From a virus (Duplodnaviria > Heunggongvirae > Uroviricota > Caudoviricetes), in the IMG/VR virus record IMGVR_UViG_2627853794_000002, positions 1 to 40,524 of that record: a stretch of DNA of 40,524 nt, one strand, 5' to 3'. Numbering within the stretch: the stretch's first letter is position 1; every line of letters begins with the position of its first letter. The translations under genes were made by a program, and so were the position numbers. Under the pieces are notes generated by a model that worked only from the letters and a program-made list of their open reading frames with translations, did not search any database and was not told where the DNA came from. Of this stretch, positions 2,399 to 40,524 are shown in pieces.

Positions 2399-2953
2399 TC
2401 ATTTATCTCCGACCGAAAACTTCTTATACAGTGTCGATATACCAACATCATAGATGATCGCCACCTTCTGGCGAGGAACGCCTGATGCAATTAATCGCCC
2501 GGCCTGCGCCCATTGTTCTGGTGTAAGTTTGGGACGACGTCCACCAATTCGTCCCTGTGCGCGAGCAGCTTCCAGTCCAGCTTTTGTTCGTTCAACAATC
2601 AGTTCACGCTCCATTTCAGCCGGGGCACCCATGACATGAAAAAAGAAACGGCCCATTGGGGTGCTGGTATCAATACTGTCAGTCAGGCTTCGGAAATTCA
2701 CGCCACGCTGACGCAACTCTTCTATCAGCGTAACAAGATGCCGCATACTGCGCCCCAACCTGTCCAGCTTCCAGACAACCAGAGTGTCTCCTGCCGATAG
2801 TGTCCTGAGCAGCTTTTTCAGCCCCGGTCTGTCGGACTTTGTACCGCTTATCTTGTCTTCAAAAATCAGCTCGCATCCTGCACAGTTCAACGCATTACGT
2901 TGTAGATCGGTGTTCTGGTCATTTGTTGATACGCGAACATAGCCAATAAGCAT
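2399..2953 (-). CDS. pin: Serine-recombinase DNA invertase (Pin/Gin/Hin family)
   Basis: MLIGYVRVSTNDQNTDLQRNAL... resolvase catalytic domain plus C-terminal HTH; near-identical to e14 Pin as recalled; start taken at internal ATG 2953. Confidence 0.9.
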   Translation of the reverse strand: MLIGYVRVSTNDQNTDLQRNALNCAGCELIFEDKISGTKSDRPGLKKLLRTLSAGDTLVVWKLDRLGRSMRHLVTLIEELRQRGVNFRSLTDSIDTSTPMGRFFFHVMGAPAEMERELIVERTKAGLEAARAQGRIGGRRPKLTPEQWAQAGRLIASGVPRQKVAIIYDVGISTLYKKFSVGDK

Positions 2954-3021
2954 GATAGCTCCTCCTGACAAAAACAGGAACGATGCCATTTGCGCGCTAT
3001 TTCTGCATTTTCATAAACGTT

Positions 3022-3042
3022 GGTTTGGGAGAGGCGGCAAAA
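3022..3042. repeat. Invertase crossover site, left copy
   Basis: ggtttgggagaggcggcaaaa; inverted copy at 4573-4593 with 1 mismatch; encodes GLGEAAK in both tail-fibre reading frames. Confidence 0.6.
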
Positions 3043-3366
3043 ATGTCTGCCGCTGCACTTGTCATTAACGGTAATACGTTGACAGCAAAAATCCCGGTAG
3101 TTATTAACGGCGTTAACAGGGAGTTTATTATTCAGGCATCTCAGATATCCAGCTCAGCAAGCAATGGTGTTATTACCTTCCCATCCGCATTTCCAAATGC
3201 GTGTATTGCGATTTTTGCGCATGACTTTGCGACAGCGTCTACGGATTTATCGAATGTTCGGTTCTATATGCCAGGAAGAACATCAGCATCATGGACAGGG
3301 CAAAATATGAGTACAGGCAGTGAATCATCACCTGCAACATGGTGTTGGCTGGCAATTGGCTGGTAA
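3022..3366 (+). CDS. Alternative tail-fibre C-terminal cassette (silent in this orientation)
   Basis: ORF 2983-3366 shares GLGEAAK with the expressed fibre at the crossover site; no own start downstream of site; would fuse to fibre N-terminus after inversion. Confidence 0.55.
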   Translation, partial: GLGEAAKMSAAALVINGNTLTAKIPVVINGVNREFIIQASQISSSASNGVITFPSAFPNACIAIFAHDFATASTDLSNVRFYMPGRTSASWTGQNMSTGSESSPATWCWLAIGW

Positions 3367-3786
3367 ATGGAGAAAACAATGAAATATTTTACATCTGCTC
3401 CGATTGCTCTTTATAACTCCGATATATCCTCTTATATACCCGGTGACGCAGTAGAAATCAGTGATGAAGTATATGACGCACTTATTGCTGGTCAGGAGGC
3501 AGGAAAGAATATTACGGCAGACAGTAACGGACTGCCTGTACTGGCAGAACCCGCACAACCAACTCATGATGAATTGGTTGCAGCATCTGAATTAATGAAA
3601 CAGCATCTGATTGATGCTGCTATGGCTTCCATCAGTCTGATTCAGCTGAAATTGCAGGCCGGACGTAAATTGACGCAGGCAGAAACAACCCGGCTTAACG
3701 CTGTGCTGGATTACATTGACGCAGTGACGGCAACAGATACCAGCACCGCGCCGGATGTCATCTGGCCTGAACTGCCGGAGGCGTAG
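3367..3786 (+). CDS. Tail fibre assembly protein (alternate-orientation copy, Tfa family)
   Basis: 139 aa; C-terminal ...APDVIWPELPEA typical of Tfa chaperones; follows silent fibre cassette. Confidence 0.7.
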   Translation: MEKTMKYFTSAPIALYNSDISSYIPGDAVEISDEVYDALIAGQEAGKNITADSNGLPVLAEPAQPTHDELVAASELMKQHLIDAAMASISLIQLKLQAGRKLTQAETTRLNAVLDYIDAVTATDTSTAPDVIWPELPEA

Positions 3787-4210
3787 GCCATTCAATATCT
3801 GGCGCACTGGAGGTATCAACCAGCTCCAGTGCATCCAGATAATCCAGCCACAAATTATATTGCGCCAGTTCCTCACCTTTCAGACGACCAATAGCGGCTT
3901 TACCGGGCCATTGCTTACTGTTCATGTATTCGTTGGCCTGGTTAATTAGTAGCTGTCTTTCTGATTCAGTAATTTCAATAAGCTCTTCATGCGTGGGTGG
4001 AGGAATATCTGCCCACGCAGGCAGCCCATCATCTCCGGCAATACGGATTTTTCCTTGTGGCGGTTCAGCCATAAACTCACTGATAATATTTTGATTTACT
4101 TCCTTAGCGTCTGATAAATCCCATCCCTCTGATTTATATTTATCAATCATATCCACAGGGAAAAAAGCATTATGCCTTGCGCTATAAACATATTCGTTCA
4201 TATAAATCAC
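3758..4210 (-). CDS. Tail fibre assembly protein (expressed-orientation copy, Tfa family)
   Basis: 150 aa; ...APDIEWPTPPAVQAR; immediately downstream of tail fibre gene. Confidence 0.75.
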   Translation of the reverse strand: MIYMNEYVYSARHNAFFPVDMIDKYKSEGWDLSDAKEVNQNIISEFMAEPPQGKIRIAGDDGLPAWADIPPPTHEELIEITESERQLLINQANEYMNSKQWPGKAAIGRLKGEELAQYNLWLDYLDALELVDTSSAPDIEWPTPPAVQAR

Positions 4211-4221
4211 CCTGAATAAAA

Positions 4222-4884
4222 TTACTCACCAACAGCCCACCAACTGTAATTCATCGATACCGTGTCGCTGGTTGATGACGTTCTGTAAGCAGAATTAAAG
4301 CCGGTTAACGTTGGGCCTTCTGCAGTCATCACGAACCCTCGCCCAGCGCCTAAAGGCGCACCGCCATCACCAGAATGAGTAAGCATGGCGCAGTCCGCTT
4401 TTTTGGGGAAAGGGATGCTGAATGTAATTCTCATTGTTTGCGTCGATAATGTCGGCGTAACCGCACCACGACCATATTGCAGGATTTTCCCGTTGGGTAA
4501 TTTCATCCACCCATCACCACTGGCAAAAGAGGCCATGTCCGGTATCTGATTTTCCCCTGTCCCCACATCCCGTTTTGCCGCTTCTCCCAAACCAAGGTTT
4601 TCGAGAGCCGTTTTCACCGTGCCATCCGATTTGATATCGCCAAACGGATTCTTGCGGCTTAACAGCAGCGCACGAAGCGCGGTAAGCAGCTGGTCGTGCC
4701 GCGCCTTCTCAAGACTGGCACCGGATGCCTCAACAACGCTACAAAGTTCTTCCTGCAACATGTCAAAGTAGTCATCATCCAGATCGGTGGCAGGCGTGCC
4801 AGTCTGGGGGTTACCACGGGTAAAACCGTTTTTACCCGCGCCGAACTTATCCTTCTGCGCGGTTTTCGTGTCTATACGATGCAT
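4222..4884 (-). CDS. Tail fibre protein (constant N-terminus outside, variable C-terminus inside the invertible segment)
   Basis: 220 aa; crossover site falls at codons 98-104 (GLGEAAK); followed by Tfa gene. Confidence 0.75.
4573..4593. repeat. Invertase crossover site, right copy (inside tail fibre CDS)
   Basis: ttttgccgcttctcccaaacc = reverse complement of left copy with one mismatch. Confidence 0.6.
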
Positions 4885-9945: not shown

Positions 9946-11781
9946 TTACCTGCCAAAGCGCGTATAGCCAACATCATGGCTGACATCAAAACCGCTGGAT
10001 CGCGTTTCCATAACCCGCATACCCGGAGGCGAATTCACAAAAGAGACCTTGATCTCACCATCAACTTTTGGCGCAGAAGCTTTGTTAATCATGAAGGGAT
10101 TCGGGCCTGTGGCACCGGAGGCGTTGTTTGACTGAGCCAGATCTACCGCCGGATAAGGTGTGTATCCCCGTGCCGGTATTCCCGTCCCATAAGCATCATA
10201 AGCACCCGCGCCCCACTGCGCAGAGTTAATGGCATCGACCGTGTCACCGGAACTGTCGGTAAACCACTCAATAATTGGCTTCAGCTTATCCCACATATCC
10301 TGAAACCACTTAACAACCGGTCCCCAGTTATTGATCACCATCTCCAGCGGCGACCAGGCAAAAACCTTCTTCAGAAGTTCCCAGCCAGCCTCAAAATAAG
10401 GACCAATGGTTTCCCAGAGTTTCTTAAAATAAGGTCCGACAACATCCCAGTTAGTGATAATTAATCCCGCAGCCAGGGCTATCGCCGTCGCAATCATGCC
10501 AATCGGCGTCATCGACATGATCCTGCTGACAATACTGATGGCACCGCCCACGCCCATCAATCCCAGCTTCAGAATCGCAAGACCGGCAGCAAGCCCGACG
10601 ACGCCGCGAATAACCCGGGGATTTTCATCCGCAAACTTCGTGAATTTCTCCCCCAACTCCCCCAGCCACTGCGTGATATTTTTGGCGTCACCAGAAAATG
10701 CGCCGCCAATAGCTGCAAGACCGTTAGTTGCGGTCCCCGTCATTGCCTCCCACAGGTTGGACAGCGTACCAAGCTGAGCCTGAACACGTTTATTCAGGCT
10801 GGCCTGTTTATTCATCTTCTGCTGGATCTGATCGTAGCCATCCTTTCCTTTATCGATTAGTGCATTGACCACCTGAAGGGTTTCGGCATCATCACCAAAT
10901 ATTGCCTTAAGTACGCCTGTTCGCTTAACGTCGGTCAGTTTTCGCAGCTTTGCCAGTTGCCTGAACATGTTATCAAGACCGCCAAAACTCCCTTTGCCGT
11001 CAGTAAAATCGAGCTGTACCCCGAGTTTCTGGCGGGCCATGATTTTATTGACGTCCCTGATTTTCTTAACGCTTAATCCGGACTGGATAACTTTTCGCAG
11101 GGCGTTACCTGCCGACTCCCCGTTCATCCCCATCTGATCCATCATGACGCTGATGGGGGCAAGGCTCTGTGCAGCCTGAAGACCGTCCTTGTTCACCATC
11201 TTCAGAACAGAACTGGTTTTAGTGAAGAAGGACAACATGTTGGTATCGTCAACGCCCAGATAAAACGCCTTCTGGATAGTGTCGAACAGCCCCATCATGT
11301 CTTCTGACGCCGTTCCGGTAGCATCCTGCATCTTTGCAGCAAACTCAGCAGCCGCTTCCGGTGTTTTTTTCAGTTGTACCGCAAGATAAGCTGTCGCTTT
11401 ACCCACACCACCCAGAATGTTTTCTGCCGGGATCCCCTGACGCACCAGCATCTGCATCATGTTCTGGAAATCAGCCGTTGTACCGGGTAGCTGGTTACCC
11501 AGGCCAATAGCCAGTTTATTGATGTCCTGAAAGCTCTTTCCAACCTCGCCGTTCGCATCCATCATGGCGACTTTCAGCCCGGTAGCGGCGTTTTCCTGAT
11601 CGGCATAAGATTTCAGGGAAAGCGTCAGCCCCGCTGCCAGTCCTCCACCAAGCGCCAGCCCACCCTGTGACGCTTCTTCCGCCTGGCGTTTAAATCCCCG
11701 GATTTTCTTTTGCATTTTCGACAGCGCGGGAGAAAGCCTGTCGACACCGGTGATCAACGCCTTAAGCTCAAATTCAGCCAT
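9946..11781 (-). CDS. Tail tape measure protein
   Basis: 611 aa; Ala/Gly-rich helical protein with hydrophobic segment near C-terminus; immediately downstream of chaperone frameshift pair. Confidence 0.8.
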   Translation of the reverse strand: MAEFELKALITGVDRLSPALSKMQKKIRGFKRQAEEASQGGLALGGGLAAGLTLSLKSYADQENAATGLKVAMMDANGEVGKSFQDINKLAIGLGNQLPGTTADFQNMMQMLVRQGIPAENILGGVGKATAYLAVQLKKTPEAAAEFAAKMQDATGTASEDMMGLFDTIQKAFYLGVDDTNMLSFFTKTSSVLKMVNKDGLQAAQSLAPISVMMDQMGMNGESAGNALRKVIQSGLSVKKIRDVNKIMARQKLGVQLDFTDGKGSFGGLDNMFRQLAKLRKLTDVKRTGVLKAIFGDDAETLQVVNALIDKGKDGYDQIQQKMNKQASLNKRVQAQLGTLSNLWEAMTGTATNGLAAIGGAFSGDAKNITQWLGELGEKFTKFADENPRVIRGVVGLAAGLAILKLGLMGVGGAISIVSRIMSMTPIGMIATAIALAAGLIITNWDVVGPYFKKLWETIGPYFEAGWELLKKVFAWSPLEMVINNWGPVVKWFQDMWDKLKPIIEWFTDSSGDTVDAINSAQWGAGAYDAYGTGIPARGYTPYPAVDLAQSNNASGATGPNPFMINKASAPKVDGEIKVSFVNSPPGMRVMETRSSGFDVSHDVGYTRFGR

Positions 11782-11956
11782 GTGTGCGTTTCTCCTGCTC
11801 TATCCTGTTTGCCTGACTGACCAGCAAGGGAATTTCACTGATCGGCATATTCAGCAATTCGAAGGGATTAATGCGCCAGTAGCTGGCGCAGTCAAAGAAG
11901 CGATCAGTGAGGTATTCAGCCGTCAGGCCTGGAGGAAAAAACCAGCCACAAGCCAC
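11774..11956 (-). CDS. -1 frame extension of tail assembly chaperone (frameshift product)
   Basis: Overlaps 3' end of 11923-12192 ORF in -1 frame; slippery heptamer at overlap; ends 7 nt before tape measure start. Confidence 0.45.
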   Translation of the reverse strand: MACGWFFPPGLTAEYLTDRFFDCASYWRINPFELLNMPISEIPLLVSQANRIEQEKRTHG

Positions 11957-12192
11957 GCCGCTGCATTCAGGTCTGCCGGAGACATCTGGTCGACAGAGCT
12001 TTGCGGCACTTTCGCCAGCCGCACAATGTATTTCGACACCACATGCGCCAGAAGTCTGACGGACTCATCCTGATTCATCTGGTAGGGATACCCCAGCTCG
12101 CGGACATCTTTCCCGGTGGGCTCATCAAACTCCAGTACGGAGAGTGTCTCGCCATGAGCGGTAATCGGTTTCTTTAACTCAAGCTCTTTCAT
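11923..12192 (-). CDS. Tail assembly chaperone (P2 gpE / Mu gp41-like)
   Basis: 89 aa ORF between tail tube and tape measure genes. Confidence 0.6.
   Translation of the reverse strand: MKELELKKPITAHGETLSVLEFDEPTGKDVRELGYPYQMNQDESVRLLAHVVSKYIVRLAKVPQSSVDQMSPADLNAAAWLVAGFFLQA
11935..11941 (-). other. Candidate -1 programmed ribosomal frameshift site T_TTT_TTC
   Basis: Minus-strand heptamer in zero frame (ggT TTT TTC) within the 34-nt overlap of the two chaperone ORFs. Confidence 0.45.
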
Positions 12193-12548
12193 TACTGGTA
12201 ATCCCCTTCTTCACCGTGGAACTCAAGATCGACCGTGCCTTCTTCGGCATTATGGTTCGCTTCGCCGTGCAGCCAGGCAGACGACAGTACATAGACCTGA
12301 CCGTTCGCCAGCTCGGCAGTGATGGTCATCTCATCAGACGAGGTGATTTTGCTCACCGGAAAATTCTTCGGCACCTTGAAGGTCCCTTTGACATAAGGCG
12401 CACGGTGAGTTTCCTTGCGGTCCACTGAACCGTCCAGGCCGATGATGTCATCATTGACCGTCCTGTTCATGGGCACCTCAATGCCGCCGGTCAGCGATAG
12501 CTGCTGACCGTCAATTTTGAAATAACAGGTTCCCCCGATACGGGCCAT
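12192..12548 (-). CDS. Tail tube protein (Mu M / gp40-like)
   Basis: 118 aa; directly downstream of sheath gene. Confidence 0.7.
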   Translation of the reverse strand: MARIGGTCYFKIDGQQLSLTGGIEVPMNRTVNDDIIGLDGSVDRKETHRAPYVKGTFKVPKNFPVSKITSSDEMTITAELANGQVYVLSSAWLHGEANHNAEEGTVDLEFHGEEGDYQ

Positions 12549-14044
12549 TATGCGGACTCCTCTGAATACTGAAGACGGAACTGGTTAACCACGGCAAAGA
12601 CACGCAACTGGTTAACATAGTCAGGCGGGAACAGCGTGTTCAGGCGGTTCGGATCGCTGGCATCACGCTCCACAACCAGGTACTGCTTAAACAGTGCGTA
12701 GTTTTCCACGATCCCCGCACGCTCAAGCTGACGGTAGGTTGCCAGCAGTTCCCCTTTGATCACCGCCGGGGTGACAATCGCCTGACCGGGACCAAAGCGG
12801 GTACCGTCACTGGCAAGCTTGTGACGCCCGTACTTACTGGTAATGACGGATTTCAGTTTGCGCAGTACATACGCGCTGGTATGCAGAGTCTCGCTGTCGA
12901 GGTAGCTGTTATCCGCAACCCCGTAAGCGTTTTTCCTGTACGTGGTGACATCACGCTGAATGCGCAGTACCCCGCTTTCGACATACGCCGTTGCCACGCC
13001 ATGAGACAGCAGGGTCTGTTGTTCGGTCATCGTGAACCGTTTCCCCTTCGGCGCAGGCAGCATACCCACCAGCTCACCGGTCTGCGTGGGACGTGCCGGA
13101 TCGTTGCGAATAAACACCGCTGCGCGGGCGGTACGGCTTGCCGCCAGTTCGTCGGCAGGCGTCTGGGTCTCTTTTTCGTACCCCGCCAGGGTAATGTGCT
13201 GCTGGTTAAACTGGTCACCTGCGGTCACCAGTTCTGACAGCGTGCCGATCTTTGCCGTATACACATGACCATACAGCTGACGCGCATAGCTCCAGCGACC
13301 GCTGGTATCGTTCATCTCGGTCACCAGCGTGTTAACGGAGGCCGTGTCGTTGAACGGCAGGCCGATATAATCAAACGGCTCATCCGCCATTGCAGCCACC
13401 GCGCCGGTGAGAACCGGAGCACCCGTTCCGGCGGTACCCGTCGCCACGGCAATCTGTACGCCCGCTGGCAGCACTTCGCCCCCACCAAAGCCGTAGTAAT
13501 TGAGGCTGACAGGAATTTCATTCCCGCAAAGCCCCTTATGACGCGCGGTCAGTGTGACCACGCCTGCCGAAGATGAAGCCGTAAACGGCAGGGCCGGAAC
13601 GGCATTGATGGCATCCTGGATACTGCTGGCAATCGTCGTGACGTTATCGCCGTTGGTCACCGGAGCCTGCACGCGGGTACGTCCCACATAGACATTCACC
13701 GTGCCGGTTTCGGTTGCCGCCCCGGTCACCGTCAGCGTAACCGTTGCCGCCGCGCCCGTGGATTCAGGAACGGCAATCACATACAGCTCACCAAACGGGT
13801 CGGTCTGGCGATAAGCCTCGACCATACGCGCCAGCTGACTTCCCGCACCACAAATCTGGCGTGCATAGTCTGCCGACGGCATCAGTACCAGACTGTTGGC
13901 AACAATCTCTGCACCGTTATTGGCATGACCAATCAGCAGCGATGCTCCGCTGTCCTGTGCAGTATTCGCCGCCTGGTTATCCATTTCCGCATAAAACAAC
14001 GGAACCAGCGTATTCGACGGAATGGTGTTAAAGCTTATCGTCAT
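12548..14044 (-). CDS. Contractile tail sheath protein (Mu L / gp39-like)
   Basis: 498 aa; sheath-tube-chaperone-tape measure gene order. Confidence 0.8.
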   Translation of the reverse strand: MTISFNTIPSNTLVPLFYAEMDNQAANTAQDSGASLLIGHANNGAEIVANSLVLMPSADYARQICGAGSQLARMVEAYRQTDPFGELYVIAVPESTGAAATVTLTVTGAATETGTVNVYVGRTRVQAPVTNGDNVTTIASSIQDAINAVPALPFTASSSAGVVTLTARHKGLCGNEIPVSLNYYGFGGGEVLPAGVQIAVATGTAGTGAPVLTGAVAAMADEPFDYIGLPFNDTASVNTLVTEMNDTSGRWSYARQLYGHVYTAKIGTLSELVTAGDQFNQQHITLAGYEKETQTPADELAASRTARAAVFIRNDPARPTQTGELVGMLPAPKGKRFTMTEQQTLLSHGVATAYVESGVLRIQRDVTTYRKNAYGVADNSYLDSETLHTSAYVLRKLKSVITSKYGRHKLASDGTRFGPGQAIVTPAVIKGELLATYRQLERAGIVENYALFKQYLVVERDASDPNRLNTLFPPDYVNQLRVFAVVNQFRLQYSEESA

Positions 14045-15270: not shown

Positions 15271-15655
15271 TGTTGCCTCCGTGACTCTGCCTACATTCGC
15301 CCAGCTCCGTACACTCCAGCAGCAGAAAGCGCCGCGCCCCGTTCAGATCGCGCTGACGTTTCACCCGGTACACACTGTCACCGCAGACCACCTCATAATC
15401 AGCGGTGATCCCCCGGCGGTAACGAATGGTGATGTAATGGGTGATGGCGTCCCCGGTCTGCGCGGTTTCCTGCCAGGTGGTGGCACTGGTCTGGACAACC
15501 TTCGCCCATGTCCGGAACGCAACCGGGTATTGAGGCTCCACGCCAAAGTTATCCGCGGGCATATCCACCCGCAGGCGGATCAGGACGCGTTTATTCAGTT
15601 CACCGGGGTCCGGCAGAATGTAGGTTGCGCTGGTCTGCGCCTGACGAATTTTCAT
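15245..15655 (-). CDS. Head-tail adaptor / head closure protein
   Basis: 136 aa; synteny downstream of connector-like gene. Confidence 0.4.
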   Translation of the reverse strand: MKIRQAQTSATYILPDPGELNKRVLIRLRVDMPADNFGVEPQYPVAFRTWAKVVQTSATTWQETAQTGDAITHYITIRYRRGITADYEVVCGDSVYRVKRQRDLNGARRFLLLECTELGECRQSHGGNNDDFLFAR

Positions 15656-15975
15656 TGCGGGAAATACCTGTACGGGCCGACAAGCCAGTTAAAGCTCATT
15701 GGCAACTCCATTTTCTCAACGTCTGTAACCGACGAGCGATTTTCGTAAAAATGGCTGATAAGCATCAGCATCCCCAGACGAATATCATCCGGCAGGTGCA
15801 GCCCGTCCGGATCGCTGTCCGGAATGGATTCATCCGGTGCATAGAGCTTCCGGTTCAGATACGTTTCCGTCCGCTTTTGCGCCGCACAGGCCAGCAGTTG
15901 CAGATGGCGGTCATCAGCATCGAAATCCTCATCCAGCCGGAGTTGGGCTTTAATCTCTTCCATTGTCAGAAGCAT
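15652..15975 (-). CDS. Head-tail connector protein (gp6-like)
   Basis: 107 aa; MLLTMEEIKAQLRLDEDF... typical of gp6-like connector family; follows capsid gene. Confidence 0.5.
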   Translation of the reverse strand: MLLTMEEIKAQLRLDEDFDADDRHLQLLACAAQKRTETYLNRKLYAPDESIPDSDPDGLHLPDDIRLGMLMLISHFYENRSSVTDVEKMELPMSFNWLVGPYRYFPQ

Positions 15976-19510: not shown

Positions 19511-21268
19511 TTAAAGCGAACGGATGCCCACGCTGACCAGATGTTCAGACAGATCCAGCTCCGGTTCACCACCATTGACCAGCATCCGGCTCATTGCTGT
19601 AAACATCGCAACAGGGCCGTCGATTTTGGCTTCCAGCGTGGATTTATTCGGGAAGATATTGTCGTTTTTGTCCGGTTTTACCGTAACGTTAGACATCATC
19701 CAGTTCATGACCGGATGATTGCTGTGATGGAAACGCCCGGCATAGACCAGTGATTCCGTTTCCTTCATGGCCTCTGACAGATTACGAACCGTCTGCGGAA
19801 CCTCCACCAGCGGTATCCCTTCTTCAGCCAGTGCCAGGCTGAACTGCATCGCGCTCCACGGGTCAAATCCCAGTTCCCTGAGGTTTTCACCACCAATCCA
19901 TTCCAGTAAGTCACTTTTTATCTGAGCATGATCGATAACATCACCATCCGTCAGAATCAGCTTATCCATCTCCGCCCACTTCCGGTAAAGTTCTGCCTGC
20001 TGCCGCGAGCATCGTTCCAGCCGTCCTTCCGGAAGCCAGAATTTAAAATCGGCATGAACATGCCCGTTATCCGTTCGCCAGAGTTTTGCCGCCGCACAGA
20101 TATCAATCTTATGAGCAAGGTCAACGCCGACCCACATGGGATACGTTTTCAGCTCATGTCGTGGGGCAATGTATTCGCACTTCTCCCACTTAATCATGTC
20201 CATCCAGGCAGACTCTGCTGTTACCCACACATTCATGTGTTTGGTAAAAAAATTCACCCGCGCAGAGACCTGTTCTTTCGCTTTTTTCGCCAGGCGACGC
20301 AGATCATCCCAGCGTTTACAGATGCCCAGGCCGGGATTCGCTTTCTGCCAGACCGTTTCATCAAACGGATCATCTCCCTCATCGAGGGTGTAAATAATCG
20401 CAAAGTAGGAGTCGTCTTTTACAGCGCCCTCCACATCGCTGTTATAGCCACGCAATACCTTGATGGCGTAATCACGCTGCTCGTAACAAATCCCTTCCTT
20501 GTTAAACCCTGCCGTGGTGATACCAAATAACAGGGACTGCAGGCGAGCACCGGTTGCCGTTTCCAGAACGTCCCACACGTCGCGGGTTTTATGTGCATGC
20601 AGCTCATCAATAATGGCGCAGTGGATGTTCAGACCATCCAGGTTGTTTGCATCCGAGGAAAGCGGTTCAAATTTTGATGCGCTCTGCTCCTGGTAAATCG
20701 CCAGCTTGTTGAAATCAAACAACCGCCCGAGTGTCGACCGGGCTTTTCTGACCATATTTTTGGCGTCTTCAAACACAATTCTGGCCTGGTCACGCGTGGT
20801 GGCGGCTGAATACACCTCAGCACCGCCTTCACCATCTGCCCCCGTCATATACAGGCCGATACCCGATGACAGAGTTGATTTTGCGTTTTTACGGGCGACT
20901 TCGTTGTACGCCGTCCGGAACCGGCGCACCATCACCGGACGTCCGCTGCCATCGCTGCGCATGACAACTTCCCCGGTCTCTTCATTCACCAGCGGAATGA
21001 CAAAACCAAAAATATTAATGAGGATAAATACATGCCAGTCCATCAGTTCAATGGGCTGGCCTGCCAGCGCCCCTTTTACATGAGGCACAAATTTGTAGAA
21101 ATTCAGGATGTGCTGCGCACGGGGTTCACTGAAATAAATCCCCCGCTCTTCGCCGTACTTCAGATCATCAAGAAAACGCTGGCAGGCCAGGCGGACAAAT
21201 TCGCCAGCAACAATTTCTCCTGCAACAACACGTTCGGCGTAGCGGATCCCGTCAGCCACTTTTGCCAT
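19511..21268 (-). CDS. Terminase large subunit
   Basis: 585 aa; ATPase plus nuclease architecture; ATGA overlap with small subunit stop. Confidence 0.9.
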
Positions 21269-21750
21269 CAGTCTCTCGCTTTTAAAAGCTCCGCCAGCGG
21301 ATCAACATCATCCGGTCCGGCGATATTTACTTTAGCCCGGCTTGCCGGTGACATACCAAACTCTGCAAGCATTGCCCGGATCCGCTTCCAGGCATCCGCT
21401 TTCATTGCCGCCGCGGGGTGCGCCTTAATCAGTACATCACCGCTCTGCGTTTCCGTGCGGTAGGTATACCCCTCAACATCGAGTGTTTCGCAGTGATGCC
21501 GATATTCGGTGTAGGCTTCCACCAGCAACTCGAGCGCACGCGCATCAAGCTGAGAAATGATCCCTTCCGCATTCAGCTCTTCCGCCATTCGCCTGAACCA
21601 GTACTTCCCCTGAGCCCCTAAATGCTGCGGAATTTTAGGAAGACCTTTTTCATCCTTTTTAGCGGTTTTTTTGTGGTCTTTAACGGGGCGCTTTGAGGGG
21701 TTGCCTCGAATCAAATGCAGGCGTGGCGGGGTTTTCGGAGGTCCTGACAT
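21268..21750 (-). CDS. Terminase small subunit (P27 family-like)
   Basis: 160 aa basic N-terminus; directly upstream of large subunit. Confidence 0.7.
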   Translation of the reverse strand: MSGPPKTPPRLHLIRGNPSKRPVKDHKKTAKKDEKGLPKIPQHLGAQGKYWFRRMAEELNAEGIISQLDARALELLVEAYTEYRHHCETLDVEGYTYRTETQSGDVLIKAHPAAAMKADAWKRIRAMLAEFGMSPASRAKVNIAGPDDVDPLAELLKARD

Positions 21751-24167: not shown

Positions 24168-24242
<75 letters not shown>

Positions 24243-24245
24243 ATA

Positions 24246-24321
<76 letters not shown>

Positions 24322-24323
24322 AC

Positions 24324-24400
24324 TGGACCGCCACCGGGGACTCGAACCTCGCACACTCAACTTAAAGGGTTGACGCTCTTTCCTGATGAGCTAGTGGCGG
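24324..24400 (-). tRNA. Atypical tRNA, anticodon UUU (Lys?) with C33
   Basis: 77 nt; perfect 7-bp acceptor stem CCGCCAC/GTGGCGG, anticodon stem TCAAC/GTTGA, loop CCUUUAA, T-loop TTCGAGT with one A-C mismatch in T stem; CCA encoded. Confidence 0.55.
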
Positions 24401-24401
24401 C

Positions 24402-24477
24402 TGGTGGCCCTTGCTGGATTTGAACCAGCGACCTGGCGATTATGAGTCGCTCGCTCTCACCACTGAGCTAAAGGGCC
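24402..24477 (-). tRNA. tRNA with anticodon CAU, most similar to tRNA-Ile2 (ileX/ileY-like) rather than elongator Met
   Basis: 76 nt; loop CUCAUAA; acceptor GGCCCTT/AAGGGCC; CCA encoded. Confidence 0.75.
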
Positions 24478-37704: not shown

Positions 37705-38026
37705 GGCCTGTCAGTTTCTCAAGATATCCAGACCTACCGCTACCAACTGGATACGAACAGGCCGCCTACAGGCAACACGCAAAGACCCCACTAAACCAAA
37801 ATCTCCTTACCTCACAACGCGACAAGCCTGCATTGCGGCGCTTCAGTCTCCGCTGCATACTATCAAGGTGAGCGCGGGTGATGGCATAACAGAGGAAAGA
37901 AAATGTCACTCTTCCGCAGAAGTGAAATATGGTACGCCAGTTTCACATTGCCGAACGGTAAAAGATTTAAACAGTCTCTTGGAACAAAGGACAAAAGGCA
38001 GGCGACAGAGCTCCATGACAAGCTAA
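37676..38026 (+). CDS. xis: Excisionase-like HTH protein (AlpA/Xis family); 3' end overlaps int
   Basis: [33 protein letters not shown]... HTH; ORF runs 124 nt into int in another frame, true C-terminus uncertain. Confidence 0.5.
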
Positions 38027-39066
38027 AGGCTGAAGCATGGCGGGTCAGCAAACTTGGTGAAATACCTGATATGACGTTTGAGGAAGCGTGTGTCAGGTGG
38101 CTCGAAGAGAAAGCACATAAGAAATCACTGGACGATGACAAAAGCCGGATCGGATTCTGGCTTCAACATTTCGCAGGGATGCAACTAAGAGACATCACTG
38201 AATCAAAAATTTATTCAGCGATGCAGAAAATGACAAACCGGCGTCATGAGGAAAACTGGAAACTCAGGGCAGAAGCATGCAGAAAAAAAGGGAAACCTGT
38301 TCCAGAATACACGCCAAAACCAGCGTCCGTTGCAACGAAGGCTACGCATCTTTCATTTATAAAGGCCCTGCTAAGAGCCGCAGAGCGTGAATGGAAAATG
38401 CTGGATAAGGCACCAATTATTAAAGTGCCTCAACCAAAGAATAAACGGATCCGCTGGCTGGAGCCCCATGAAGCACAAAGGCTGATTGATGAATGTCCGG
38501 AGCCATTAAAGTCTGTTGTTGAATTTGCACTGGCAACAGGCTTAAGACGCTCGAACATCATCAACCTTGAATGGCAACAAATAGATATGCAGCGCCGGGT
38601 GGCATGGATAAACCCGGAAGAGAGTAAATCAAACCGCGCAATTGGCGTTGCGCTGAATGATACTGCATGTCGCGTATTGAAAAAACAAATCGGGAATCAT
38701 CACCGTTGGGTATTTGTGTACAAGGAAAGCTGTACCAAACCAGACGGAACGAAAGCGCCAACAGTAAGGAAGATGCGGTATGACGCAAACACAGCCTGGA
38801 AAGCGGCGCTGAGACGGGCTGGTATTGATGATTTCAGATTTCACGACTTGAGACACACCTGGGCAAGTTGGCTGGTTCAAGCCGGAGTCCCGTTGTCAGT
38901 GTTACAGGAAATGGGGGGTTGGGAGTCTATCGAAATGGTTCGTCGATATGCTCACCTTGCACCTAATCACCTTACCGAACACGCACGGCAAATAGACTCG
39001 ATCCTGAATCCATCGGTCCCAAATTTGTCCCAGTCAAAAAATAAGGAAGGTACTAATGATGTGTAA
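37903..39066 (+). CDS. int: Tyrosine integrase (lambdoid prophage integrase)
   Basis: 387 aa; N-terminal [14 protein letters not shown]...; catalytic region ...[39 protein letters not shown]; stop 14 nt from tRNA 3' end. Confidence 0.9.
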
Positions 39067-39080
39067 CTTATTGATTTAAA

Positions 39081-39156
39081 TGGTGCCGATAATAGGAGTC
39101 GAACCTACGACCTTCGCATTACGAATGCGCTGCTCTACCAACTGAGCTATATCGGC
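39081..39156 (-). tRNA. thrW: tRNA-Thr (anticodon CGU), intact; prophage attachment site
   Basis: 76 nt; minus strand GCCGATATAGCTCAGTTGGTAGAGCAGCGCATTCGTAATGCGAAGGTCGTAGGTTCGACTCCTATTATCGGCACCA; adjacent to proA as in E. coli. Confidence 0.9.
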
Positions 39157-39270: not shown

Positions 39271-40524
39271 TTACGCACGAATGGTGTAATCACCAATGCC
39301 GATCCACTTGTAAGTGGTCAGTGCTTCCAGCCCCATTGGGCCACGCGCGTGGAGTTTTTGTGTGCTTACCGCCACTTCCGCACCCAGTCCAAACTGGCCG
39401 CCGTCGGTAAAACGCGTAGAGGCGTTAACGTAAACAGCGGACGAATCCACTTCGTTAACAAAACGCTGGGCGTTGCGCATATCGCGGGTCAGGATCGCAT
39501 CGGAGTGTTGTGTGCCGTGTTCACGAATATGGGCGATGGCATCGTCAAGATCGCTGACGATTTTGACGTTCAAATCTAATGACAGAAACTCATCGTCATA
39601 CTCTTCAGCTTTAACCGCCACCACCTTCGCAGGGCCTGCCTGCAACTGTGTCAGCGCAGCTGCATCTGCGTGTAATGTCACGCCGCTTTCCGCCATTTGT
39701 TTGCTTAATGCGGGCAGGAAGCTATCGGCGATGTTTTTATTCACCAGCAACGTTTCTACCGTATTACATGTGCTCGGACGCTGAGTTTTCGCGTTGACGA
39801 TCACTTTTAATGCTTCAGCGATCTCTGCACTTTCATCAACGTAAATATGGCATACGCCTATACCACCAGTGATCACCGGGATCGTCGACTGTTCACGGCA
39901 CAGTTTATGCAAACCAGCGCCACCACGCGGGATCAGCATGTCGATGTATTTATCCATACGCAGCATTTCACTGACCAGCGCACGGTCAGGATTATCAATC
40001 GCCTGCACGGCACCCGCCGGTAAGCCACAGGATTTCAGGGCGTCCTGAATCACCGCTACCGTTGCCGCGTTAGTGCGACAGGTTTCTTTGCCACCACGCA
40101 GGATCACCGCATTACCGGTTTTCAGGCACAGCGAAGCGACATCAACCGTCACGTTCGGGCGCGCTTCATAAATCACGCCAATAACCCCCAGCGGTACGCG
40201 ACGACGCTCAAGACGCAGGCCGCTGTCCAGTACGCCGCCATCGATTACCTGCCCCACCGGATCGGCGAGGTTACACACCTGGCGTACATCGTCGGCAATG
40301 CCTTTCAGCCGTGCGGGCGTCAGTGCCAGACGGTCAAGCATCGCTTCGCTAAGGCCATTGGCTCGCGCGTCAGCAACATCCTGGGCGTTAGCGTTGAGGA
40401 TGATTTCGCTTTGTGCTTCCAGTTCATCGGCGATTTTTTCCAGCACGCGATTTTTTTCGCGGCTGGAGAGTTGCGCTAATTTATACGAGGCTTGCTTCGC
40501 GGCAATGCCCATTTGTTCCAGCAT
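39271..40524 (-). CDS. proA: Gamma-glutamyl phosphate reductase
   Basis: 417 aa, full length; aldehyde dehydrogenase-type fold; matches E. coli ProA as recalled. Confidence 0.95.

Follow-up and report, generated by a model that had tools for sequence, protein, structure and literature searches.

The tail assembly chaperone gene of an SfV/SfI/SfII-like prophage of E. coli very probably yields two proteins, the longer of which would arise by slippage of tandem tRNA-Phe on the heptamer T_TTT_TTC, giving a predicted fusion of 139 aa that corresponds to lambda GT and P2 E+E'. The window, that is, the whole 40,524-nucleotide stretch analysed (IMG/VR record IMGVR_UViG_2627853794_000002, positions 1 to 40,524), is a prophage of this group carrying a Mu-type contractile tail, and all features described below lie on its minus strand. 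The slip site is real and conserved but ordinary, being the usual site of tailed phages, and the conceptual gain is small because the case is the textbook G/GT (P2 E/E+E') recoding in another phage lineage.

Mechanistically, we infer a ribosomal shift. Most ribosomes would make the 89-aa chaperone and stop at the UGA at 11925-11923, while a minority, with the P-site tRNA-Phe on UUU and the A-site tRNA-Phe on UUC, would slip back by one base, both tRNAs re-pairing with UUU in the -1 frame. The slipped ribosomes would read 53 more codons and release the 139-aa fusion 8 nt into the tape measure gene. Lambda G/GT and P2 E/E+E' suggest by analogy that the shared N-terminal part would coat the tape measure protein and that the T domain would recruit its presumed partner, the tail tube protein, with the tube then polymerising around the tape measure. 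By the same analogy, slip efficiency would set the proportion of short to long product, and neither would enter the virion.

Gene order and geometry of the slip site

The chaperone gene (the lambda G / P2 E equivalent; 12192-11923) starts with ATG and encodes 89 aa (9.9 kDa) up to a zero-frame TGA at 11925-11923. Its product matches PF10109 Phage_TAC_7, the family of P2 gpE and Mu gp41, over positions 2-78 of the 79-position model (E=1.9e-16; 60.3 bits, with a gathering cut-off of 25 bits), as do all 14 members of set A3, and it also falls in phrog_166 of PHROGs ('tail protein', E=7e-24); PGAP labels the gene 'phage tail assembly protein'. Directly upstream, with its stop overlapping the chaperone ATG as TAATG, lies the tail tube gene (12192-12548; 118 aa; PF10618 Tail_tube, E=2.4e-33; phrog_185), preceded by the tail sheath gene (12548-14044; 498 aa; PF04984, PF17482 and PF17481; phrog_165), whose presence identifies a contractile, Mu-like tail module. 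The module is otherwise Mu-like as well, with a DNA circularisation protein and a gpP-type hub. Downstream follows the tape measure protein gene (9946-11781; 611 aa; PF10145, E=1.3e-26; phrog_28 and phrog_17727), with an AGGAG about 12 nt upstream of its ATG. The chaperone pair thus sits between the tube and tape measure genes, as the G/GT class requires, a class reportedly attributed to Xu, Hendrix & Duda 2004. A scan of the locus revealed no promoter and no minus-strand terminator inside it.

Within this arrangement, the first-pass annotation had noticed two ORFs overlapping in a -1 relation, with T_TTT_TTC in the zero frame of the overlap, and had read them as a chaperone pair with a -1 frameshift preceding the tape measure gene. 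Both the geometry and the reading hold. The second ORF (11956-11774; 60 aa from a GTG) ends with a TGA at 11776-11774, overlapping the tape measure ATG (11781-11779) as ATGGCTGA, and the two ORFs share 34 nt (11923-11956). The heptamer (U_UUU_UUC in the mRNA) occupies 11941-11935, 16 nt ahead of the zero-frame stop, and is in the right phase: its first T is the third base of Gly84, which would make Phe85 (UUU) the P-site codon and Phe86 (UUC) the A-site codon. The zero frame reads ...GCT GGT TTT TTC CTC CAG GCC TGA across the site, and after a slip the -1 frame would read TTT TTT CCT CCA GGC CTG ACG..., which is the second ORF's ...FFPPGLT. The predicted fusion CDS, join(12192..11935, 11935..11774), reads base 11935 twice and encodes 139 aa (15.8 kDa) with the junction peptide ...VAGFFPPGLTAEY...; its -1 extension, the T domain (11774-11935), comprises 53 codons (11935-11777) and the TGA at 11776-11774. 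The reading as a chaperone frameshift draws on the PF10109 match and the gene order above, and on the conservation and the homologous P2 column described below.

In E. coli, U_UU.U_UU.C falls into one of the classes of heptamer that shift efficiently (H_HH.U_UU.Y; PMC4066793). Heptamer and overlap, on the other hand, are common in the window and no proof by themselves: TTTTTTY occurs 38 times against 22.8 +/- 6.6 in shuffles, and 12 in-phase X_XXY_YYZ heptamers have a -1 continuation past the zero-frame stop, a count that takes in ORFs of at least 80 aa on both strands, spurious ORFs and ordinary gene overlaps included. What raises the case above chance is its conservation across relatives.

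Conservation of the site and of the two-frame layout

Sequence diversity was drawn from a genome collection and from tblastn against phage records, since two scans of IMG/VR gave almost exclusively near-identical loci. T_TTT_TTN was present in the same phase in all 21 loci examined, from 100% down to 40% aa identity. Twenty of these are genome loci (from Edwardsiella, Shigella, Buttiauxella, Citrobacter, Erwinia, Pantoea, Kosakonia, Derxia and others), and in every one the T run begins at the third base of codon 84, with the slip point after exactly 86 aa. Across the loci the zero-frame stop lies 16, 31, 34 or 49 nt past the start of the T run, and the -1 frame is always open to the tape measure start. 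Among 12 distinct enterobacterial sequences the heptamer forms part of an 11-nt block, GGTTTTTTCCT, that does not vary, whereas 75 of 83 wobble columns upstream of it do.

More distant phages and elements likewise have the in-phase run and an open -1 frame, in varying codon contexts: CGT TTT TTT in SfIV and phiP27, AAT TTT TTT in ST64B, GGT TTT TTC in Burkholderia BgVeeders33 and in a Haematospirillum element, AGT TTT TTC in Pseudomonas DVM-2008, GAT TTT TTG in Bordetella PBb001, CCT TTT TTG in Stutzerimonas PG1 and GGT TTT TTG in P2. The residue ahead of the T run differs accordingly (G, R, N, S, D or P), and its codon ends in T in every case. In IMG/VR, GGT TTT TTC was found in 118 of 120 loci; three prophage loci there have GGG TTT TTC or GGG TTT TTT, so that the X_XX part of the heptamer is disrupted.

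These alignments bear on whether RNA polymerase, rather than the ribosome, does the slipping. Addition of one U on the T6 run would make a single-frame fusion mRNA and an identical protein with no ribosomal shift, and a homopolymeric run of six to seven T is indeed found in every relative; Sharma et al. report avoidance of U7 and A7 runs in all three frames and name transcriptional slippage as a possible cause (PMC4066793). Against this stands the phase of the run, which is always locked as X_XXY_YYZ, with a T-ending preceding codon whatever the residue (GGT, CGT, AAT, AGT, GAT, CCT), because phase matters only for tandem tRNA slippage. The run is also short (six here, seven in some relatives), below the length of 8-9 or more that is typical of documented polymerase slippage sites in bacteria. 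Moreover, the P2 record (NC_001895) annotates the homologous site as a -1 translational frameshift. We therefore regard transcriptional slippage as quite improbable.

The extension itself evolves as coding sequence, since variable columns beyond the zero-frame stop follow the -1 codon positions (28/48, 18/49 and 40/49 for the first, second and third). Its motif FDCAxYWRINPxExL...QANRI aligns with P2 E' and with the Mu T domain, and across the T domains of all lineages, P2 E' and the -2-frame extension of Mu included, the alignment has an invariant Pro, a near-invariant Ala and the common motif A-x-[YF]-[WFH]...P-x-E-L; the T domain of Bordetella PBb001 has the exact FHWPPSEL of P2. No Pfam family matched the T domain searched alone. 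For the fusion, AlphaFold modelling of the chain alone gave a pLDDT of 44.7, and a sequence search of the PDB returned only a chance match (E=0.034).

It is consequently highly improbable that the overlap is fortuitous and the 141 nt from the chaperone stop to the tape measure start an untranslated spacer. The 12 in-phase heptamers with long -1 continuations, trivial cases included, show how readily such a geometry arises in the window, and PGAP and the SfV records leave these 141 nt unannotated; yet every relative down to 40% identity keeps the -1 frame open while the zero-frame stop moves, the substitutions fit a -1 codon pattern, and the resulting peptide can be aligned with P2 E' and other T domains.

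Translation of 11956-11774 as a small gene of its own is likewise extremely unlikely. An independently used start of the downstream ORF was named in the first-pass annotation, together with the lack of a fusion peptide, as what would speak against a fusion, and the window does have the GTG at 11956; ON470584 annotates the -1 ORF separately as a 'hypothetical protein', and PHROGs places it in a family, phrog_32181. However, inspection by eye revealed no AGGAGG-like Shine-Dalgarno sequence before this GTG, and 11 of 18 distinct related sequences lack any ATG, GTG or TTG that precedes the heptamer in the -1 frame, leaving an independent start unsupported. In several relatives the -1 frame opens just 15-30 nt ahead of the heptamer. 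Where a start is present, it consists of the wobble base of codon 79 and the TG of Trp80, a chance product of these two codons. No initiation codon of the second ORF is conserved among the relatives.

We give next to no credence to the last alternative, a decayed gene in a defective prophage, in which a single 139-codon ORF was hit by a 1-nt homopolymer indel. Homopolymer runs are indel-prone and the database holds 'fused' proteins, but those designated P0001-P0003 are singletons from short contigs with other indel scars, and the six candidates P0001-P0006 were dropped as natural in-frame fusions, being singletons with indel scars. No natural in-frame fusion was found among the 21 loci, SfIV and eight further phages and elements including P2, all of which keep the zero-frame stop. 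The two-frame layout is, furthermore, found in 1,098 of 5,426 complete E. coli genomes, the number in which a 901-bp stretch of the locus is present, in phages SfI, SfII and SfV, which form plaques, and in distant genera.

Known systems and current annotation

Among known systems, P2 gpE/gpE+E' is the closest, sharing with this locus the PF10109 family, the place between the tube and tape measure genes and a contractile tail. The slip site falls in the homologous column (VVG-F, GGT TTT TTG in P2; VAG-F, GGT TTT TTC here) with a T6 run in the same phase, and the products are of similar size (91/142 aa in P2, 89/139 aa here). In both, the end of the -1 ORF overlaps the tape measure start and a downstream hairpin in the canonical position is lacking. 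The heptamers differ in their last codon, T_TTT_TTG (Phe-Leu) in P2 and T_TTT_TTC (Phe-Phe) here. PMC3091744, which cites Christie et al. 2002 for the P2 frameshift, places it at TTTTTTG.

Pairwise BLASTP gave no significant match between the fusion and P2 E+E' (E=0.37), which made a profile comparison necessary. With hhalign, a profile of 14 predicted fusions aligned to P2 E+E' with E=7.5e-5 over 122 columns across the junction, placing VAGFF on VVGFF, at a probability of only 62% and 23% identity. Judged by these alignments, the predicted fusion is a homologue of P2 E+E' in both slip column and extension.

Lambda gpG/gpGT, with its slip site G_GGA_AAG, follows the same logic from the same gene position, but the lambda tail is non-contractile, whereas the tail here is contractile, and no sequence similarity was detected or expected. 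There, binding to the tape measure protein resides in the G part and binding to the major tail protein in the T part, and neither product is found in the virion (review PMC5009743).

Mu presents a different case. The tail module around the locus is Mu-type, Mu gp41 is named in the PF10109 description, and the gp41 (Mup41) extension aligns with the T domains; nevertheless, Mu lacks a T run and encodes its extension in the +1/-2 frame, the chaperone frameshift being '-2 in Mu' (PMC2628397). A Mu-type -2 shift was ruled out for our locus, where the +1 frame around the stop is open for only 16 codons. As far as sequence comparison shows, SfV-type 'Mu-like' tails resemble P2 in having a -1 site on a T run, and not Mu with its -2 shift.

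The predicted fusion is missing from the SfV, SfI, SfII and SfIV-group phage records and from the one E. coli RefSeq (PGAP) annotation inspected, in which the -1 stretch is either blank or a separate 'hypothetical protein'. The SfI and SfIV genome papers make no mention of a frameshift, and our literature search found no report that SfV-type phages produce the fusion or need it in tail assembly. Passages of the Sharma et al. 2014 supplement give A_AAA_AAG_25 as the tail assembly chaperone cluster, and no prophage T_TTT_TTC cluster was found in those passages. The practical value of the present result is thus the annotation of the fusion product, and engineering of these prophages, or of Mu/SfV-type tailocins, requires both products in the right ratio.

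Stimulatory elements and a distal hairpin

A downstream stimulatory RNA structure, suggested earlier as a check on the frameshift, was also sought, and no canonical element was found. Canonical stimulators of the dnaX / IS3 type consist of a hairpin or pseudoknot 5-9 nt downstream of the heptamer and/or a Shine-Dalgarno-like element 6-17 nt upstream. The 50-nt fold after the heptamer (-6.5 kcal/mol, z=+0.71) is no better than shuffles, the 45-nt folds in enterobacterial relatives have z near 0, Rfam has no relevant match at the locus, and a by-eye reading of the aligned loci gave no conserved upstream Shine-Dalgarno-like sequence, a GGGAGG being confined to some distant relatives, L016 among them. 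On these folds, the Rfam search and the upstream sequence, we rejected membership of the stimulated -1 frameshifting class. A 100-nt downstream fold does reach significance (z=-3.44), but the consensus structure of nine relatives lacks its long-range stem, CACUGAUCG/CGAUCAGUG, and the fold was discarded as a stimulator.

In E. coli reporters, passages of the PMC4066793 supplement give 0.12% frameshifting for UUUUUUC without a stimulator, and 0.89% and 7.6% with the IS911 and IS3 stimulators, respectively. With U_UUU_UUC alone reaching only about 0.1% and no stimulator nearby, a non-canonical modulator was considered, namely a perfect 8-bp hairpin, UGCGCCAG-CUA-CUGGCGCA, which lies within the T-domain codons (11872-11890), 45 nt 3' of the heptamer and inside a larger fold (z=-3.4), and is too distant for a canonical frameshift stimulator. 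In its stems all four degenerate wobble sites are invariant, whereas the wobble position of the loop and 40 of 49 other wobble columns vary. No covariation or compensatory changes were seen among the relatives compared, and the hairpin is broken in L017 and L020 and absent in SfIV. We consider it unlikely, on balance, to be a selected RNA element, one that might tune the G:GT ratio from a distance or might instead stabilise the 141-nt stretch, left untranslated by most ribosomes, or affect tape measure expression.

Layout of the chaperone locus

On the minus strand, the sheath gene (14044-12548; Pfam Phage_sheath), the tube gene (12548-12192; Tail_tube), an 89-codon tail chaperone ORF (12192-11923; Phage_TAC_7, PF10109, E=1.9e-16) and a 611-codon tape measure ORF (11781-9946; PhageMin_Tail) follow one another, with PHROGs agreeing; genes for a DNA-circularisation protein and then a Mu gpP-type baseplate hub come next. 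Pfam describes PF10109 as 'tail assembly chaperone proteins E, or 41 or 14'. The start codon (ATG) of the chaperone gene shares bases with the stop codon of the tube gene. A 60-codon ORF in the -1 frame (11956-11774, minus), with no Pfam family, terminates in ATGGCTGA, where it overlaps the start of the tape measure gene.

The first-pass annotation had proposed a programmed -1 frameshift joining the chaperone and this second ORF, and its reading of the sequence is exact: the two ORFs, their -1 relation, the 34-nt overlap and the in-phase T_TTT_TTC are all there. The chaperone gene finishes GCT GGT TTT TTC CTC CAG GCC TGA, which places the heptamer (11941-11935) in X_XXY_YYZ phase. The computed products would be a protein of 89 aa (9.9 kDa) and a fusion of 139 aa (15.8 kDa).

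By itself, this geometry is no more than chance, and it is the comparative evidence that decides. The window contains 38 copies of TTTTTTY where shuffled sequences have 22.8 +/- 6.6, and 12 in-phase heptamers have a -1 continuation beyond the zero-frame stop (ORFs of at least 80 aa on both strands, spurious ORFs included), several of them being ordinary gene overlaps. Two sites from which the -1 frame enters the next gene, T_TTA_AAA 16 nt before the stop of 21268-21750 (minus) and T_TTC_CCG 10 nt before that of 15652-15975 (minus), look like ordinary overlapping-gene junctions; the geometry alone is therefore not diagnostic.

Conservation of the slip site and its extension

We compared 20 loci from the genome collection, spanning 100% to 40% identity and including Edwardsiella, Shigella, Buttiauxella, Citrobacter, Erwinia, Pantoea, Kosakonia, Derxia and others. 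In all 20 the T run begins at the third base of codon 84, after exactly 86 residues. The zero-frame stop moves, lying 16, 31, 34 or 49 nt past the start of the run; despite this, the -1 frame stays open for 50-59 codons and terminates where the tape measure gene starts. Across 12 distinct close relatives the block GGTTTTTTCCT is invariant, while upstream wobble positions are variable in 75 of 83 columns and the Ala codon directly before the site occurs with all four wobble bases.

Distant relatives keep the phase-locked run as the preceding residue changes: CGT TTT TTT in SfIV and phiP27, AAT TTT TTT in ST64B, AGT TTT TTC in Pseudomonas DVM-2008, GAT TTT TTG in Bordetella PBb001, CCT TTT TTG in Stutzerimonas PG1, GGT TTT TTC in Burkholderia BgVeeders33 and a Haematospirillum element, and GGT TTT TTG in P2. 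A T-ending codon regardless of the amino acid is a requirement of tandem tRNA slippage, a pattern that protein conservation alone would not yield. The strict phase-locking of the run, together with its shortness, also argues against transcriptional slippage as the source of the fusion in place of a ribosomal shift, which the homologues suggest.

Three IMG/VR loci (L075, L081 and L044) carry GGG TTT TTC or GGG TTT TTT at the position homologous to 11935-11943, a change that disrupts the heptamer in its P-site part and leaves the chaperone protein unaltered (one scan had 2 among 120 loci). These may be low-efficiency variants or defective prophages.

Past the zero-frame stop, variable columns fall on the three -1 codon positions as 28/48, 18/49 and 40/49, the pattern expected of coding sequence. 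The extension peptide has a conserved motif, FDCAxYWRINPxExL...QANRI, and can be aligned with those of every other lineage, P2 E' and Mu among them, through one Pro that never varies and one Ala that hardly does; that of Bordetella PBb001 shares FHWPPSEL with P2. A separately used start for the downstream ORF, the alternative raised by the first-pass annotation, is not conserved: in 11 of 18 distinct relatives the -1 frame upstream of the heptamer contains no ATG, GTG or TTG. Where a start is present, including the window GTG at 11956, it always lies at -15, arises from the codon-79 wobble base followed by the TG of Trp80, and is therefore incidental.

SfIV shows a mosaic junction homologous to about 12155-12164 of the window. 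SfIV-type phages have the sheath, tube and first ~10 chaperone codons in common with it at about 97% identity; beyond the junction, their chaperone and tape measure module falls below 50% and has its own T_TTT_TTT site, which fits a swap of the two genes as one co-adapted unit.

Homologous systems, mechanism and stimulators

In the P2 record, GGT TTT TTG is marked as the site of a -1 translational frameshift (E 91 aa, E+E' 142 aa). A profile built from 14 predicted fusions matches P2 E+E' across the junction over 122 columns (E=7.5e-5, probability 62%) and places VAGFF on VVGFF. From the annotated shift and this alignment it follows that the window site is the homologue of the P2 T-run site. 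The conserved phase-locked run, the coding extension and the P2 homology together support a conserved programmed -1 frameshift site of the P2 E/E+E' type in the tail chaperone gene of this SfV-like prophage, and we consider it very probable that the site is a genuine, selected recoding site. Mu has the tail module nearest in gene content, but it lacks a T run and carries its extension in the +1/-2 frame, its chaperone frameshift being described as '-2 in Mu' (PMC2628397).

In the lambda G/GT model (PMC5009743), the G part binds to the tape measure and the T part brings in the tube subunit; the shift efficiency sets the product ratio, and neither product is found in the virion. By analogy with this model, and going by the homologues, the 89-aa and fusion products may have corresponding functions. 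An unexpected role for a member of PF10109 comes from Burkholderia gladioli Bg_9562, reported as a secreted antifungal effector (PMC5581363).

Mechanistically, E. coli has one tRNA-Phe species, reading both UUU and UUC, so both tRNAs could re-pair fully on a -1 slip from UUU_UUC to U_UUU_UU. The prophage encodes four clustered tRNAs (24168-24477, minus: Gly-tcc, Thr-tgt, Lys-ttt, Met-cat), none of which is a tRNA-Phe, so that no connection with the slip site is apparent. Sharma et al. (PMC4066793) count H_HH.U_UU.Y among the efficient E. coli heptamers, yet give UUUUUUC shifting as only 0.12% with no stimulator present, rising to 0.89% with those of IS911 and to 7.6% with the IS3 pseudoknot.

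The downstream stimulatory RNA structure that the first-pass annotation suggested looking for did not appear at canonical distance, the first 45-50 nt folding no better than shuffles; nor was there a conserved upstream SD-like element or an Rfam match. The P2 E/E+E' shift is likewise described with no downstream hairpin (PMC3091744). A perfect 8-bp GC-rich hairpin, UGCGCCAG-CUA-CUGGCGCA (11890-11872, minus), lies inside the T-domain codons 45 nt downstream of the heptamer, which is too far for a standard stimulator; the 100-nt fold containing it has z=-3.44. In 10 distinct enterobacterial sequences its degenerate stem wobble sites are invariant (4/4) and the loop wobble varies, against 40 of 49 variable wobble columns in the T region overall. 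The stems are intact in two relatives at 55% identity (L021, L022), broken in two others (L017, L020) and missing from SfIV; the compared relatives showed no compensatory changes. Since most ribosomes terminate before this stretch, the hairpin could serve mRNA stability just as plausibly as frameshifting.

Annotation gap and prophage context

A stretch of 901 bases around the site matches Shigella phages SfI, SfV and SfII and two E. coli phages at 98.7-99.2% identity, and is found in 1,098 of 5,426 complete E. coli genomes. None of the inspected records annotates the fusion: PGAP and the SfV records leave a 141-nt gap between genes, and one depositor lists the second ORF as a hypothetical protein in its own right. 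The genome papers on SfI and SfIV say nothing of a frameshift or a chaperone. The site is thus new as an annotation, its kind being already known from P2 E/E+E'; this gap and the missing stimulator are the points of note.

The prophage ends with an integrase gene (37903-39066), adjoined by a tRNA-Thr(cgt) (39081-39156) and an aldehyde-dehydrogenase-family gene taken as proA (39271-40524). This would fit SfV, which integrates at thrW beside proA. At the opposite end lie an AraC-family gene (1-753) and a GIY-YIG (LEM-3-like) ORF (1517-2341). The prophage of E. coli S19-651 (L001), otherwise identical, has an extra plus-strand 'OB-fold protein' gene (771-1217 of that locus) between the DNA-circularisation and tape measure genes, an insertion that the window lacks. 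Positions 2399-4884 appear to be an invertible tail-fibre segment resembling the Mu G segment, in which a resolvase/invertase gene (2399-2989, minus) adjoins two oppositely oriented sets of tail-fibre C-terminus and tail-fibre assembly genes (2983-3786, plus; 3758-4884, minus).
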